64,000 nucleotides of DNA. Source: Deinococcus sp. (GTDB taxonomy: Bacteria > Deinococcota > Deinococci > Deinococcales > Deinococcaceae). This document shows positions 49,956 to 64,000 of the stretch, one piece after another. Under the pieces are notes generated by a model. It did not search any database and was not told the DNA's origin. It was given only the letters and a program-made list of their open reading frames with translations. Positions within the stretch are counted from its first letter, which is position 1. Each line of letters opens with the position of its first letter. The DNA lies in NCBI RefSeq assembly GCF_965247185.1, contig NZ_CBDFHA010000001.1, forward strand, positions 50,215 to 114,214, read 5' to 3'. A program made the translations under genes and the position numbers.

Positions 49956-50294
49956 TTATTGGCCCCAGACTTCTGCCACGATGCCCGCCGCCAGCTCGTC
50001 TACCGTTTCGCGTTCCAGGGCGACGGGATCGATGTCGCGGCCCAGGTCGCGTTGCAGGCAGTACAGCAGCTCGACGCTCATCAGCGAGTCAAAGCCGATG
50101 GCCAGGAAGCTGCGGTCTGCGCCCGCGTCGGTGTCCGCGCCGCCCTGCCGCCGGATGAAGGCCACCTGCTGCTCGATGTAGCGGGTCAGCTCGGCGGATT
50201 TGTCGGCAGAACTCAGGGGTTCCAGGGCGTCTAAGAGGCGGCCCTTGCCGCCCCCCGCGTTTAGGGCCGTCCAGTCGGTCATGGGCTTGGTCAT
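49956..50294 (-). CDS. acyl/peptidyl carrier protein (phosphopantetheine attachment site)
   Basis: 112 aa. FLAIGFDSLMSVELLYCLQRDLG contains the DSL serine motif. Confidence 0.8.
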   Translation of the reverse strand: MTKPMTDWTALNAGGGKGRLLDALEPLSSADKSAELTRYIEQQVAFIRRQGGADTDAGADRSFLAIGFDSLMSVELLYCLQRDLGRDIDPVALERETVDELAAGIVAEVWGQ

Positions 50295-50356
50295 AGCGTC
50301 TCCTCTTGTACAGCTTCCGCTTTCTCTACAAATCCTGCCTCATTTCATGATTGGGA

Positions 50357-61243: not shown

Positions 61244-64000
61244 GCGCCGCCCGCTGCCGGAGGCGCGGCCCCCTCGCCCAGCAGCCCTTTCAGCAGCGCG
61301 TCGAGCTGGGCTTCCGGCAGGCTATCCAGCTCGGCGTCCATTGGAATGGGCAGCGGCGGCAGCGGATCGGCGCTCAGGTTCAGGCCCTCCAGCACGAACT
61401 CGCTCAGGCCGCGCAGGGTCACGCCGCTCACGAACTTCATCGGCGGAATCCTGACGCCGGTCTCGGCCTGAATCTGCCCGCCCAGCTCGACAGCCATCAG
61501 CGAATCCACGCCCATCTTCATGATCGCCTGATCGGCGTCGAGCTTGCCCGGCGAGGTGCCCAGGATGCGGGCGAGCTGCTCGGAGAGCCGCCCGAACAGC
61601 AGCTTCCAGCGCTCCCCCTCGTCCAGCCCGCGCAGCGTCTCCACAAAGTCGGCCTCGCCGCCTGCGCCTGCCTCGCCCAGGGGAGCGCCGTGCAGGGCCG
61701 CCAGCCTCGGAGGGAGCGCCGCGCCGCGCGCCCGGACGAGGGCAGGCCAGTGTAGCGCCGCCACCCCCACCGTCGCGGCGGGCGTATGCCACAGCGCTTC
61801 CAGCGCCGCCAGCAGCCGCGAGACCGGCACCGGCGTCACGCCCGCCGCCTCCAGTTGCGCCGCCACCCCGCTCTGGGTCGCCAGGTAGCCGACGTCAGCC
61901 ACCGCGCCCCAGGCCACGCTCAGGGCGGGTAGGCCCAGGCCCCGGCGGTGCTCGGCCAGCCCATCCAGAAAGGCGTTGGCGGCGGCGTAGTTGGCCTGCC
62001 CCAGGTTGCCGACCAGCGCGCTGACCGAGCTGAAGCACACGAACTGCTCCAGCTCGTCCCGGAGTGTCAGGGTGTGTAGGTTCCAGCCGCCCGCCACCTT
62101 CGGCCCGGTCACGCGGGCAAAGCGCTCCGGGGTCAGGCCCTCGATCAGCCCGTCATCGATCACCATCGCAGCGTGGAAGACGCCCAGCAGTGGCCCAGCC
62201 GTCCGCAGACCGTCCAGCAGCGCGCCCAGCGCCGCCGGATCGGCGATGTCGGCCCGCAGCGTCTGTACTTCTATCCCCTGCCCGCGCAGATGTTCGACCC
62301 GTGCCCGCGCCGCCTCGCTGCCTGTGCTGCGCCCCAGCAGCGCTAGCCGCCGCGCCCCGTGCGCCGCCAGCCACTCGGCCAGCGCCAGCCCAAAACCCCC
62401 CAGCCCGCCGCTGACGACGTACCAGCCGTCCGGGTTCAGCTCCAGCGTCTTCGGCGGACGGATCACCTGCGGGGGCACGCTCTGCGCGTCTTCTTGACCA
62501 GAACAGCGCCCATGAGGACGCTTGGCCGCCTCCATGCTCAGCACCACCTTGCCGGTGTGCCGCGCCTGCGCCATGAAGCGGAAAGCGCCGAGGGCCTGGT
62601 AGAAGGGGAAGACCCGGTAGGTCAGCGGCGACAGTTCGCCGCGCTCGAAGAGGCCCATCACCTCGCTCAGCAGTCGCCGCATCGGGCCAGGGCGATCCAC
62701 CCACATCCGGTCGAGATCGACGGCGAAGTACGACAGATTGTTGCGAAACGGCCCCAGGTCGAGCGGGCTGTTGCCGTAGATGTCGCGTTTGCCGATCTCG
62801 ACAAAGCGTCCGTAGGGCTTCAGGATCGCCAGGCTGCGCCCGATGGCGTCGCCGGACAGCGAGTTGAGCACGATGTCCACGCCCTGGCCGCCGGTCAGGG
62901 CCAGGATGTCTTCGGCAAAGTTGAGGGTGCGCGAGTCGAACACGGCGGCGGCACCCAGGCCCAGCAGCAGCTCGCGCTTTTCGGGCGTTCCGGCGGTGGC
63001 GTACACCGTGGCCCCCACCCGCCGCGCCAGCGCCAGCGCCGCCAGCCCCACGCCGCCCGCCGCCGCGTGGATCAGCACGCTGTCTTCCGGCCCCATCTGC
63101 GCCAGGGTGTGCAGCGCGTAGGAGGCGGTCATGAAGGCGATGGGCACTGCCGACAGCGCCTCGCTGCCCAGGTGGGCGGGTGCGGGCACGGCAAAGGTGG
63201 CGGGCACGGTCAGGTAGGTGCTCAGCGCGTCGCGGGCGCAGATGACCACCCGCTGACCCACACTCACGTCCGTGACACCTTCGCCGACCCGCACCACCTC
63301 GCCCGCCGCCTCCATGCCGTAGGCCCGCCCGGTGTAGCCGCCTTCCAGCGCCTCGTCCGGCAGCATGCCCATCGCCAGCATGATGTCCTTGAAGTTCAGC
63401 GCGGCGGCCTGCACCCGTAGCTCGACCTCTCCGGCGTCGGGGGCGCGGCGCGGCAGCTCCAGATAGCCCAGGCTGCCCAGCACGCCGCTTCTGGGCACCG
63501 TCAGGCGGTAGGCGCTGTCCTGCGGGGCTGATGAAGGAGGCGTCAAGTCGGCCAGCACGGGCCGGGTCAACCTATGCACGAAGCGTTTCCCGCTTCTGAA
63601 CGCCACCTCGTCTTCGGGGCTGGCCGCCAGCAGCTCGGACACCAGGGCGGGCAGCGCCTCCTGAAGTGGGGCCAGCGGGTCGAGATCGAGGCAGCGCGGG
63701 ATGAACTGCGGGTATTCGACTCCGACCACCCGCGCCAGCCCCCACAGCTCCGAGGCCGCCGGGTTGCACAGATCACCGCGCACAGCCTGAGCGCCGCGCG
63801 TGACCAGCCACAGGGCGGGCGCAGCGTCGGGGAAACTCTGCCCCACGCGGGCCAGTGCCTGCACCAGCGCCAGCGCCGCCTGTGCGCCCGTCGCCTCGGC
63901 GGCTTGAATGTCGGCAAGCGTGGGTTCGGCTGGAACCTCCAGGTTCCGCGCGAAGACGACGCCGGTCAGCGGCCCCCTGTGCAGCAGATCGGACAGCAGC
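61240..64000 (-). CDS. type I polyketide synthase, C-terminal part (psiKR - ER - KR - ACP); 5' end beyond the window
   Basis: The frame stays open to position 64000 (LLSDLLHRGPLTGVVFARNL... upstream of the track Met). ER: AAALNFKDIMLAMG, LIHAAAGGVGLAAL. KR: VVSGGLGGFGLALAEWL, HAAMVIDDG, GQANYAAANAFLD. ACP: MGVDSLMAVEL. The downstream NRPS GTG start overlaps this gene's stop (GTGA). Confidence 0.9.
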   Translation of the reverse strand, partial: LLSDLLHRGPLTGVVFARNLEVPAEPTLADIQAAEATGAQAALALVQALARVGQSFPDAAPALWLVTRGAQAVRGDLCNPAASELWGLARVVGVEYPQFIPRCLDLDPLAPLQEALPALVSELLAASPEDEVAFRSGKRFVHRLTRPVLADLTPPSSAPQDSAYRLTVPRSGVLGSLGYLELPRRAPDAGEVELRVQAAALNFKDIMLAMGMLPDEALEGGYTGRAYGMEAAGEVVRVGEGVTDVSVGQRVVICARDALSTYLTVPATFAVPAPAHLGSEALSAVPIAFMTASYALHTLAQMGPEDSVLIHAAAGGVGLAALALARRVGATVYATAGTPEKRELLLGLGAAAVFDSRTLNFAEDILALTGGQGVDIVLNSLSGDAIGRSLAILKPYGRFVEIGKRDIYGNSPLDLGPFRNNLSYFAVDLDRMWVDRPGPMRRLLSEVMGLFERGELSPLTYRVFPFYQALGAFRFMAQARHTGKVVLSMEAAKRPHGRCSGQEDAQSVPPQVIRPPKTLELNPDGWYVVSGGLGGFGLALAEWLAAHGARRLALLGRSTGSEAARARVEHLRGQGIEVQTLRADIADPAALGALLDGLRTAGPLLGVFHAAMVIDDGLIEGLTPERFARVTGPKVAGGWNLHTLTLRDELEQFVCFSSVSALVGNLGQANYAAANAFLDGLAEHRRGLGLPALSVAWGAVADVGYLATQSGVAAQLEAAGVTPVPVSRLLAALEALWHTPAATVGVAALHWPALVRARGAALPPRLAALHGAPLGEAGAGGEADFVETLRGLDEGERWKLLFGRLSEQLARILGTSPGKLDADQAIMKMGVDSLMAVELGGQIQAETGVRIPPMKFVSGVTLRGLSEFVLEGLNLSADPLPPLPIPMDAELDSLPEAQLDALLKGLLGEGAAPPAAGGA
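61390..61617 (-). other. PKS ACP domain (approximate)
   Basis: About aa 750-825. Ser788 lies in GVDSL. Confidence 0.8.
61885..62427 (-). other. PKS ketoreductase catalytic domain (approximate)
   Basis: About aa 480-660. A VIDD (LDD-like) motif suggests a B-type KR. Confidence 0.7.
62489..62530 (+). repeat. dispersed ~42-nt repeat family, copy located inside the PKS coding sequence (ER-KR linker)
   Basis: tcttcttgaccagaacagcgcccatgaggacgcttggccgcc. On the coding (minus) strand it is read in frame as AAKRPHGRCSGQED. Confidence 0.8.
62536..63513 (-). other. PKS enoylreductase domain (approximate)
   Basis: About aa 118-443 counted from the track Met at 63864. Confidence 0.75.

Follow-up and report, generated by a model that had tools for sequence, protein, structure and literature searches.

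Introduction

Thiazole-forming modules of nonribosomal peptide synthetases (NRPS) of the EpoB/MtaD type have the domain order Cy-A-Ox-PCP, in which the Ox domain is inserted between the A8 and A9 motifs of the A domain (PMC8795117). Release of a chain as an amine is known from myxochelin, for which the R domain of MxcG reduces the terminus to an aldehyde and the aminotransferase MxcL subsequently transaminates it (PMC9611931). TamH and PigE are transaminase-thioester reductase fusions (PMC9594044, PMC8341465). Among radical SAM (rSAM) enzymes, the jawsamycin cyclopropanase Jaw5 works together with Jaw4, and the HemN-like TbtI methylates the C5 atom of a thiazole (PMC10114718). Eukaryotic protein N-myristoyltransferases (NMTs) take acyl-CoA as the donor, and their catalytic base is the carboxylate of their own C-terminus (PMC4964394).

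We analysed a 64,000-nucleotide stretch of DNA from Deinococcus sp. (the window), which contains a genuine, uncharacterised polyketide/peptide gene cluster. Its product is probably an N-acylated alkyl-thiazole amine, a structure that we infer from the predicted enzymes, and the predicted acylating enzyme is a bacterial protein, of a rare kind, that is related to eukaryotic protein NMT.

Results

Layout and conservation of the cluster

An ORF check confirmed the eight minus-strand reading frames called in the first-pass annotation. The features, with the evidence for each, are:

61240..64000, minus strand: type I PKS, 3' part (putative psiKR region, ER, KR, ACP); Pfam, motifs, orthologues
57413..61243, minus strand: NRPS protein 1, Cy-A(A1-A8)-Ox; Pfam, Cy motif, specificity code
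about 59783-60952, minus strand: Cy domain within NRPS protein 1
about 58394-59671, minus strand: A-domain motifs A1-A8 within NRPS protein 1
about 57587-58099, minus strand: FMN oxidase (Ox) domain within NRPS protein 1
55641..57416, minus strand: NRPS protein 2, A9/A10-PCP-thioester reductase (R); motifs, TIGR01746, MxaA match
54145..55644, minus strand: class III PLP aminotransferase; PF00202, NCBIfam, PDB matches
53063..54148, minus strand: two-domain GNAT, putative NMT-like N-acyltransferase; AF2 model, Foldseek, family profile
52795..53062, no strand: intergenic gap, 268 nt; GC about 56%
51373..52794, minus strand: HemN-like (class C type) radical SAM enzyme, CX7CX2C; PF04055, PDB matches, ACP context
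50357..51376, minus strand: KAS III (FabH-type) ketosynthase; PF08545, PF08541, Cys/His/Asn triad
49956..50294, minus strand: stand-alone PKS-type ACP; PF00550, DSL motif
49347..49955, no strand: low-GC spacer at the downstream cluster end; GC 44-53%

Reading the junction letters bore out the start/stop overlaps of 4 nt and the gap of 268 nt described earlier. The minus-strand junctions are GTGA, ATGA, GTGA, GTGA and GTGA, the last coupling the KAS III gene to the rSAM gene; 62 nt separate the KAS III and ACP genes. The 268-nt gap between the GNAT and rSAM genes, in which no promoter consensus was found, is the sole interruption of translational coupling inside the cluster. The gene beyond the low-GC spacer belongs to the Lyase_1 family and does not adjoin the orthologous clusters.

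At least three further Deinococcus genomes carry the same cluster (D. oregonensis, Deinococcus sp. KNUC1210 and Deinococcus sp. QL22), two of them on a megaplasmid. The orthologous clusters comprise nine genes, namely a PPTase gene, a PKS gene and seven downstream genes, with 57-85% identity for every gene visible in the window. The window shows eight of the nine; judging from the orthologues, what lies beyond its edge is the PPTase gene together with the KS, AT and DH domains of the PKS. PKS/NRPS relatives are common in soil metagenomes, and the cluster is the Deinococcus form of this wider uncharacterised cluster family rather than unique.

A fully reducing PKS and a split thiazole module

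The PKS frame is open as far as the window edge. Its visible part matches ADH_N/ADH_zinc_N (ER), KR (212 bits) and PP-binding in Pfam and carries the motifs HAAAGGVG, GGLGGFG, VIDD, YAAAN and DSL. The KS, AT and DH domains of a fully reducing PKS had been predicted outside the window, and the full-length orthologues (2527-2583 aa) indeed read KS-AT-DH-(about 600 aa)-ER-KR-ACP. They open with the KS, without a loading domain, and are preceded by the PPTase gene; no FAAL was found in the Deinococcus cluster. The domain order is that of Mas/Pks2-type fully reducing single-module PKSs, and Pks2 is the best NCBIfam model, with 506 bits over the visible part against a far higher cut-off of 2400. Unlike Mas/Pks2-type enzymes, the Deinococcus PKS presumably passes its chain on to the Cy domain of an NRPS. 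The PKSs of the metagenomic relatives carry a C-MT domain, whereas the Deinococcus copies do not, and no MT motif was found in their ~600-aa stretch between DH and ER.

The Cy, A, Ox and R domains called in the first pass all score in HMM searches (Pfam; NCBIfam for A and R). NRPS protein 1, with 60-62% identity to the D. oregonensis protein, matches Condensation (117 bits), AMP-binding (288 bits) and Nitroreductase (52 bits), and its A domain reaches 414 bits for TIGR01733 (cut-off 317). The expected DxxxxDxxS signature of a Cy domain is present as DMLILDLRS. The specificity code, extracted by BLASTP alignment to the PheA region, reads DLYNLSLIW(K); the full code DLYNLSLIWK is that for cysteine, in agreement with the claimed cysteine activation. 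NRPS protein 2 begins with the A9/A10 motifs (LPAHLLP...NGKID), followed by a PCP (GGDS) and an R domain (TGGTGFFG), and matches PP-binding and NAD_binding_4 (190 bits). Thus, the cluster resembles EpoB/MtaD-type modules in its Cy motif, its Cys-specific A domain and its nitroreductase-family Ox domain located after A8 and before A9/A10, but here the polypeptide stops after Ox and A9/A10-PCP-R opens a second protein through the ATGA overlap. This split of the Ox-interrupted A domain is shared by all three intact Deinococcus copies and absent from the 21 other loci of the same domain order, making it a feature seen in Deinococcus only.

Predicted reductive amination

The R domain scores 289 bits for the thioester-reductase model TIGR01746 (cut-off 213) and 320 bits for the MxcG model of NCBIfam, and its best PDB match is the myxalamid reductase MxaA (4u7w, E 1.4e-80). 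The adjacent aminotransferase matches Aminotran_3 (PF00202) at 119 bits, carries the PLP lysine within FGKITAG and is related in NCBIfam to glutamate-1-semialdehyde aminomutases and GntE. Its best PDB match is the MycA aminotransferase domain (3e-48), followed by glutamate-1-semialdehyde aminomutases. This combination of R domain and class III aminotransferase, proposed at the first reading, parallels MxcG/MxcL. As with MxcG/MxcL, a terminal thioester reductase precedes a class III aminotransferase; unlike MxcG and MxaA, the reductase would act on the thioester of a thiazole carboxyl group. Furthermore, the Tyr-x3-Lys catalytic motif reads YAQSR in the window, and as all four orthologues have Arg where SDR enzymes have the catalytic Lys, the reduction is not assured.

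In place of the R domain and the aminotransferase, the metagenomic relatives encode TamH-type fusions in which a TubC_N docking domain is joined to an aminotransferase and to an NAD-binding domain. These fusions occupy the same pathway position, the step being kept by non-orthologous proteins. Unlike TamH/PigE, the window has an NRPS R domain as its reductase and a separate, non-orthologous aminotransferase (no match by tblastn).

An NMT-like acyltransferase in a recurring cassette

The two-domain GNAT matches Pfam GNAT weakly (E 1e-5). By predicted fold and sequence profile, however, it is a homologue of eukaryotic NMT. The AF2 model has a pLDDT of 90.6, and the best 50 Foldseek matches in the PDB are all NMTs (TM 0.69-0.77, E about 1e-20). 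The family profile finds NMTs as the sole significant matches among PDB sequences (E 2.4e-9). The match covers the full-length two-GNAT fold, and the extreme C-terminus is conserved as in NMT, with Arg as the last residue in 22/23 close relatives and in 90/117 representatives of the family. The differences from NMT are the low identity (12-18%), the lack of a score for the Pfam NMT models, and its bacterial origin in a biosynthetic cluster beside KAS III and an ACP. The acceptor would presumably be a small molecule and the donor possibly acyl-ACP. The predicted acceptor group, H2N-CH2-, resembles the N-terminal glycine accepted by NMT, and the N-acylating role assigned in the first-pass annotation fits the homology seen in model and profile.

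The HemN-like assignment of the rSAM enzyme was borne out in part, by Radical_SAM (PF04055) and by PDB matches to HemN (2e-19) and NocN (1.6e-11); HemN_C (PF06969) did not score. Its cluster motif, CX7CX2C, has an insert of 4 residues relative to CX3CX2C. Like the class C enzymes Jaw5 and TbtI, it is HemN-like, and it lies within a PKS/NRPS cluster; unlike them, it has the longer motif, and it misses the cut-offs of all named equivalogs in NCBIfam (STM4012, ChuW, HemW and HemN). An ACP is encoded immediately upstream in 21/30 relatives at ≥46% identity and in 3/47 more distant ones, and the rSAM gene follows a DH-KR-ACP module in loci L101 and L111, recalling Jaw5 with Jaw4.

The KAS III matches ACP_syn_III (PF08545) and ACP_syn_III_C (PF08541), falls marginally below the cut-off of NF006829 (248.4 versus 249 bits) and has a Cys (LACSGF), His (FHQAS) and Asn (GNTVSAS) triad. 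The stand-alone ACP (PF00550, PP-binding; DSL motif) is 67-73% identical to its orthologues.

Judging by conserved neighbourhood, the NMT-like, rSAM, KAS III and ACP genes are a recurring, functionally joined four-gene cassette. KAS III, NMT-like, (DH-)ACP and rSAM genes are adjacent in L085, L093-L095, L099 and L112. The KAS III and NMT-like genes also adjoin in L108 and L168, as they do in most relatives. In L090, the cassette stands alone in the gene order of the window, with neither PKS nor NRPS within 10 kb. The acyltransferase had earlier been assigned to a tailoring step separate from the rSAM/KAS III/ACP set, whose role had been left undecided; its recurrence in the cassette does not support this separation. 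In the relatives the ACP carries a fused DH; the Deinococcus ACP lacks it, with no KR to serve it, which does not explain how the rSAM would obtain an enoyl substrate.

Discussion

We propose that the pathway leads to a two-tailed N-acyl aminomethyl-thiazole lipid, to which, arguing from sequence, we give a probability of about 0.5 as a whole. The single-module fully reducing PKS, whose domains are evident, would make a saturated alkyl thioester, presumably by iteration from a starter. Cy-A-Ox/A9-A10-PCP-R would then join the chain with cysteine and, by cyclisation and oxidation, give a PCP-bound 2-alkylthiazole-4-carboxyl thioester. Domains and Cys code for this step are seen in the proteins, and its chemistry follows that of EpoB-type modules. 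By analogy to MxcG/MxcL and TamH, the R domain would give the aldehyde and the class III aminotransferase the 4-(aminomethyl)thiazole. Gene context suggests that KAS III separately makes an acyl chain, which is carried by the stand-alone ACP and which the rSAM may C-methylate or cyclopropanate there. Finally, the NMT-like enzyme would move this acyl group to H2N-CH2-. The earlier interpretation is supported in part: it holds for the domains, the Cys code and the reducing PKS, and its R domain/aminotransferase pairing and N-acylation fit precedent and homology; the product structure is predicted from them, and the grouping of rSAM, KAS III and ACP is revised.

An unlikely but serious alternative is that KAS III, ACP and rSAM provide a (modified) PKS starter, and that the NMT-like enzyme acylates the amine with an ordinary fatty acyl-CoA, the donor used by NMTs (PMC4964394). 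With a PKS that begins directly at the KS and no FAAL in the Deinococcus cluster, KAS III and ACP could supply the starter unit. KAS III/ACP priming cassettes are known in type II PKS systems, e.g., R1128. However, in L087 and L088 a FAAL and an ACP, likely the starter loader, lie beside the KAS III/NMT-like/DH-ACP trio, L090 has the cassette including the NMT-like gene with no PKS within 10 kb, and most relatives have KAS III directly beside the NMT-like gene.

It is improbable that the rSAM instead acts like TbtI as a thiazole C5-methyltransferase on the PCP-bound or released thiazole, rather than on acyl-ACP. A thiazole would be available as substrate, and such a role fits the position of the rSAM gene directly upstream of the Cy-A-Ox gene in several relatives (L093-L095, L097, L108, L112 and L168) and its absence from three that lack the NRPS (L087-L089). 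Yet the rSAM has an ACP as its best-conserved neighbour, it follows DH-KR-ACP modules in two loci, it accompanies KAS III and ACP in L090 with no NRPS within 10 kb, and its gene in the window shares translational coupling with that of KAS III.

It seems still less probable that a product has already been described for the cluster or its family, which would then not be new: the literature covered was open-access papers and relatives are common in soil metagenomes, but the open-access full text yielded no characterised counterpart for the organism or the enzyme combination, the database names of the proteins are all generic (GNAT family, coproporphyrinogen oxidase family), and no NCBIfam equivalog reaches its cut-off.

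Least probable is a MycA/iturin-like route, in which the aminotransferase converts a 3-oxoacyl-ACP, as KAS III would yield, to a beta-aminoacyl-ACP that the NMT-like enzyme N-acylates while R releases a thiazole aldehyde or alcohol: beta-keto thioesters on an ACP are the substrates of MycA, the closest solved relative, but NCBIfam also ties the aminotransferase to aldehyde-handling enzymes, its gene overlaps the PCP-R gene (GTGA), and the relatives' fusion directly follows the last module, which argues for reductive amination of the chain terminus.

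Layout and extent of the cluster

The first-pass annotation had described eight co-directional minus-strand ORFs, the last of them a PKS gene running off the window edge, and our ORF check matched their coordinates exactly, with the PKS frame still open at the edge. The five 4-nt overlaps claimed between neighboring genes were borne out, reading GTGA, ATGA, GTGA, GTGA, and GTGA at the coding-strand junctions, as was the 268-nt gap; a second gap measures 62 nt. Pfam recovered every domain that had been predicted, and NCBIfam was concordant. The domain-level anatomy of the cluster is thereby directly observed. 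The features that we refer to by position are the following.

47892-49346: Lyase_1/argininosuccinate-lyase-like gene, beyond the downstream end of the cluster
49347-49955: 609-nt low-GC spacer between the ACP gene and the lyase gene (GC 44-53%, against a window mean of ~68%)
49956-64000, minus strand: the cluster, from the ACP gene to the PKS gene open at the window edge
51373-52794, minus strand: HemN-like radical SAM gene
53063-54148, minus strand: gene of a 361-aa two-domain, GNAT-like protein

Orthologous syntenic clusters are present in three further genomes, D. oregonensis JCM 13503, Deinococcus sp. KNUC1210, and Deinococcus sp. QL22, and the genes visible in the window are 57-85% identical across the orthologous Deinococcus clusters. 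Each orthologous cluster comprises nine genes, namely a PPTase gene, the gene of a 2527-2583-aa PKS, and seven downstream genes. Further homologues of the GNAT-like protein were found in D. ruber, D. aquatilis, Arct2-2, and KSM4-11. The copy in QL22 resides on a 541-kb mobilizable plasmid with adjoining IS elements. Immediately upstream of its PPTase gene lie IS110 and IS3 family transposase genes (L170, the QL22 locus, 1-3144; plasmid unnamed2, MOBP), consistent with horizontal transfer of the cluster among members of the genus. The KNUC1210 copy resides on a 311-kb plasmid, where several of the genes are broken. The NRPS, PCP-R, and aminotransferase are annotated there as several short CDS together with an unannotated gap (L080, the KNUC1210 locus, 12922-20004; plasmid unnamed3), suggesting frameshifts that arose by either decay or sequencing errors.

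We considered the lyase gene as a further member of the cluster and rejected it because the orthologous clusters have other neighbors at this position; the cluster therefore ends at the ACP gene. A promoter and terminator scan of 49300-53200 returned no promoter, and its terminator-like sites were not above chance.

A fully reducing PKS module

The ER, KR, and ACP domains of the PKS lie inside the window, and the KS, AT, and DH domains were observed only in the three orthologues. Window and orthologues taken together give a fully reducing type I module, KS-AT-DH-ER-KR-ACP, with intact catalytic motifs. The orthologous PKS begins directly at a predicted-active KS domain (DTACSS, HGTGT), followed by an AT domain with GHSLG...VPFHS and a DH domain with HxxxGxxxxP. 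We found no methyltransferase motif in the ~600 residues after the DH domain; the Deinococcus PKS carries no C-MT domain, unlike the PKSs of the metagenomic relatives.

A thiazole-type NRPS with a split adenylation domain

The 1276-aa NRPS protein contains Condensation, AMP-binding, and Nitroreductase domains (Pfam). The first matches PF00668 with 117 bits (cut-off 30.6) and is of the Cy type, with the motif DMLILDLRS at residues 193-201, retained in D. oregonensis and QL22, in which DxxxxDxxS replaces HHxxxDG. The A domain scores 414 bits with the NCBIfam amino-acid adenylation model (cut-off 317). BLASTP alignment to the A4-A8 region of PheA gave the specificity code D-L-Y-N-L-S-L-I-W, to which the NGK lysine of the following protein adds the tenth residue. 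The resulting DLYNLSLIWK is the canonical cysteine code, and the A domain is predicted to activate cysteine. The Ox domain spans residues 1049-1219 (PF00881, 51.9 bits; cut-off 23.5), and its fragment in KNUC1210 carries the annotation SagB/ThcOx family dehydrogenase.

An Ox domain located between A8 and A9/A10 represents the insertion type of EpoB and IndC (PMC8795117). The cluster shares the order A8-Ox-A9/A10 with EpoB; however, its A domain is not interrupted within one polypeptide. The A8 motif GRVDRQVK resides in the first protein, which stops after the Ox domain, and an ATGA stop/start parts it from the second protein, which opens with A9/A10 (LPAHLLP...NGKID) and continues with PCP-R. 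All three intact Deinococcus copies show this split, whereas in none of the 21 other loci of equal domain order was it found, the parts being fused in frame there. We conclude that the split of the A domain is conserved and lineage-specific. The NRPS also led to 78 other genome loci from cyanobacteria, Acidobacteriota, and others, which we set aside as domain-level relatives only, as they come without the accessory genes.

Reductive release and amination

The second NRPS protein (591 aa) consists of PP-binding and NAD_binding_4 domains (Pfam), with the PCP motif GGDS. Its R domain belongs to TIGR01746 (289 bits, cut-off 213), carries the nucleotide-binding motif TGGTGFFG (TGxxGxxG), and is nearest to MxaA (4u7w, E 1.4e-80) and the MxcG model. 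The catalytic Tyr-x3-Lys of SDR enzymes is incomplete, as Arg393 occupies the lysine position: all four Deinococcus copies read GGYAQSRW, against GGYAQSKW in MxaA.

The adjacent aminotransferase is a class III, fold type I enzyme (PF00202, 119 bits against 30.5) related to glutamate-1-semialdehyde aminomutases and GntE, and no NCBIfam equivalog reached its cut-off. Its PLP-binding lysine, in FGKITAG, aligns with the GK motif of MycA. An R domain together with such an aminotransferase constitutes the myxochelin B route (PMC9611931). At the equivalent position, related metagenomic clusters encode a non-orthologous fusion of a TubC_N docking domain, a class III aminotransferase, and an NAD-binding domain, of which the aminotransferase/NAD-binding part is arranged as in TamH and PigE. 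Judged from these domain contents, the conversion of thioester to aldehyde to amine appears to be conserved across the cluster family with different proteins, with the YAQSR sequence of the R domain as a caveat. A main rival is a MycA-like reaction, in which the aminotransferase would act on a 3-oxoacyl-ACP; the aminotransferase-reductase fusions of the relatives speak instead for reductive amination at the chain terminus.

A bacterial homologue of N-myristoyltransferase

The 361-aa protein gave only a weak GNAT signal with Pfam, and the NMT and NMT_C models were not among its matches at E<=0.001. Its AlphaFold (AF2) model, built from an alignment of 23 family members, has a pLDDT of 90.6, and in a Foldseek search of the PDB the 50 best matches were without exception eukaryotic N-myristoyltransferases (NMTs), with TM scores of 0.69-0.77, E values of ~1e-20, and 346-402 aligned columns. 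The match is essentially full-length and covers a tandem of two GNAT domains arranged as in NMT. NMTs were also the sole matches of the family profile among PDB sequences (best E 2.4e-9, 40 bits, two matched stretches). On its profile and predicted fold, the GNAT-like protein is a homologue of NMT. In an exhaustive HMMER search of 1.84 billion representatives, 664 matched at E<=1e-3 and 160 still did so at E<=1e-30; the family is genuine, though rare.

A terminal arginine after hydrophobic residues is found in 22 of the 23 close members and in 90 of 117 full-length representatives. Among GNATs, only NMT is known to employ the carboxylate of its C-terminus as catalytic base (PMC4964394), and by this analogy the conserved C-terminus is suggestive of the same role, without amounting to proof. 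The biosynthetic context suggests a small-molecule amine as acceptor; the predicted H2N-CH2-thiazole would resemble the N-terminal glycine acylated by NMT.

An ACP-associated radical SAM subfamily

The product of the radical SAM gene had been called HemN-like, which holds for the radical SAM core (PF04055, 57 bits; HemN 1OLT, E 2e-19; NocN, 1.6e-11; NCBIfam HemN-related models, E down to 1e-44) but not for the C-terminal domain, as PF06969 (HemN_C) gave no score. The protein reaches the cut-off of no named equivalog in the HemN family (HemN, HemW, ChuW, and STM4012, the last at 152 against 380). Instead of the canonical CX3CX2C it carries C65-x7-C73-x2-C76, a 4-residue insert compared with HemN and NocN, and this CX7CX2C motif is invariant in the subfamily, in relatives down to 48% identity. 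The KAS III protein matches PF08545 (90.7) and PF08541 (93.6), has the complete Cys/His/Asn triad, and falls marginally under the cut-off of NF006829 (248.4 against 249). The ACP has a PP-binding match (Pfam) and the motif DSL.

An ACP gene lies no more than 450 nt upstream of the radical SAM gene in 21 of 30 loci of relatives with at least 46% identity, and in 3 of 47 among more distant ones. The relatives at or below 45% identity are mostly solitary genes, which we set aside as a different subfamily. In loci L101 and L111, the radical SAM gene directly follows a DH-KR-ACP module. This is reminiscent of Jaw5, whose substrates are enoyl thioesters bound to an ACP (PMC10114718).

The wider cluster family

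Relatives were gathered from the genomic contexts of the NMT-like protein and by a metagenome scan with the radical SAM alignment. The family combines an HR-PKS (KS-AT-DH-MT-ER-KR-ACP), KAS III, the NMT-like protein, an ACP that is often fused to DH, the HemN-like radical SAM protein, an NRPS (Cy-A-PCP-Ox), and the aminotransferase-reductase fusion (Pfam; for example L085, L093-L095, L108, L112, and L168), and one of the relatives is from a Pyrinomonadaceae MAG. In locus L090 (8855-12750), the NMT-like, radical SAM, KAS III, and ACP genes stand alone in the gene order of the window, with PKS and NRPS genes absent within 10 kb. The neighbors there encode a spermine-synthase-like membrane protein, an FG-GAP protein, and an OYE flavoenzyme.

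The NRPS-less loci L087 and L088 retain KAS III, the NMT-like gene, DH-ACP, HR-PKS, and the aminotransferase fusion. Recurring neighbors of these two loci are a B12-binding radical SAM gene, FAAL with an ACP, ABC1 kinases, DUF6312, and DUF6200, of which the last three likewise border the cassette in a Pyrinomonadaceae locus (L081).

Proposed pathway and alternatives

From the cluster content we infer the product and the order of steps as follows. An acyl chain would be assembled by KAS III on the stand-alone ACP, methylated or cyclopropanated by the radical SAM enzyme while bound to the ACP, and passed to the amine by the NMT-like enzyme. We favor this model because of the ACP gene beside the radical SAM gene, the DH-KR-ACP contexts, and the cassette that stands alone. 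A main rival is TbtI-like methylation of the thiazole at C5 by the radical SAM enzyme: its gene adjoins the NRPS gene in relatives and is absent from the three NRPS-less relatives L087-L089, and the same cassette without an NRPS gene nearby speaks for the ACP-bound acyl chain. Alternatively, the cassette may supply the starter unit of the PKS, another main rival, against which the free-standing cassette likewise speaks. Alkylamine phosphoglycolipids are a lipid class of Deinococcus. We rejected a link between them and the cluster, which occurs in only a subset of species and is often plasmid-borne; moreover, D. radiodurans is not among the named matches of the NMT-like protein searches.

In the most far-reaching form of this reading, to which we assign a probability of about 0.3, the 361-aa protein would represent a rare bacterial family that is sister to eukaryotic NMT (about 160-660 clusters among 1.84 billion representatives). 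The family would acylate small-molecule amines, with an acyl group that is supplied by a dedicated KAS III/ACP pair and modified by the radical SAM enzyme, and, jointly with the PKS and NRPS, would yield a previously unseen class of two-tailed thiazole lipids. If true, it would add a prokaryotic relative of relevance to how NMT arose, and the radical SAM step would be a new ACP-dependent reaction of class C radical SAM enzymes.

Thiazole-forming NRPSs, reductive amination, HemN-like tailoring, and KAS III/ACP pairs are all precedented; the novelty lies in the way they are combined, in the homologue of NMT, in the splitting of the A domain, and in the variant motifs. Known principles are extended and none is overturned. 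Full-text literature searches returned no description of this cluster or of its set of enzymes, the source annotations were all generic, and a characterized counterpart seems improbable. Searches on Deinococcus with PKS/NRPS likewise returned no described cluster of this kind, so that a lipid-like metabolite not yet described is to be suspected behind this conserved cluster, which is in part carried on plasmids. The same enzyme logic occurs in many soil-metagenome contigs, and one characterized member would annotate the whole family. The cluster opens several enzymes to study: a bacterial NMT homologue in predicted small-molecule biosynthesis, an ACP-tied CX7CX2C HemN-like subfamily, an A domain naturally split at the Ox insertion, and an R domain with arginine in place of the catalytic lysine.

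Other features of the window

Outside the cluster, we noted the following features.

33491-33586, plus strand: tRNA-Ala(GGC) called by ARAGORN, 96 nt
33668-35659: ORF of 663 aa
35833-39573, plus strand: ORF of 1246 aa
35836-39291, minus strand: ORF of 1151 aa, overlapping the preceding one on the opposite strand

Pfam returned no match for the plus-strand ORF of 1246 aa or for the 663-aa ORF, and a search of the whole window against Rfam gave no match at the gathering score. At 96 nt, the tRNA-Ala called by ARAGORN is unusually long for a bacterial tRNA.
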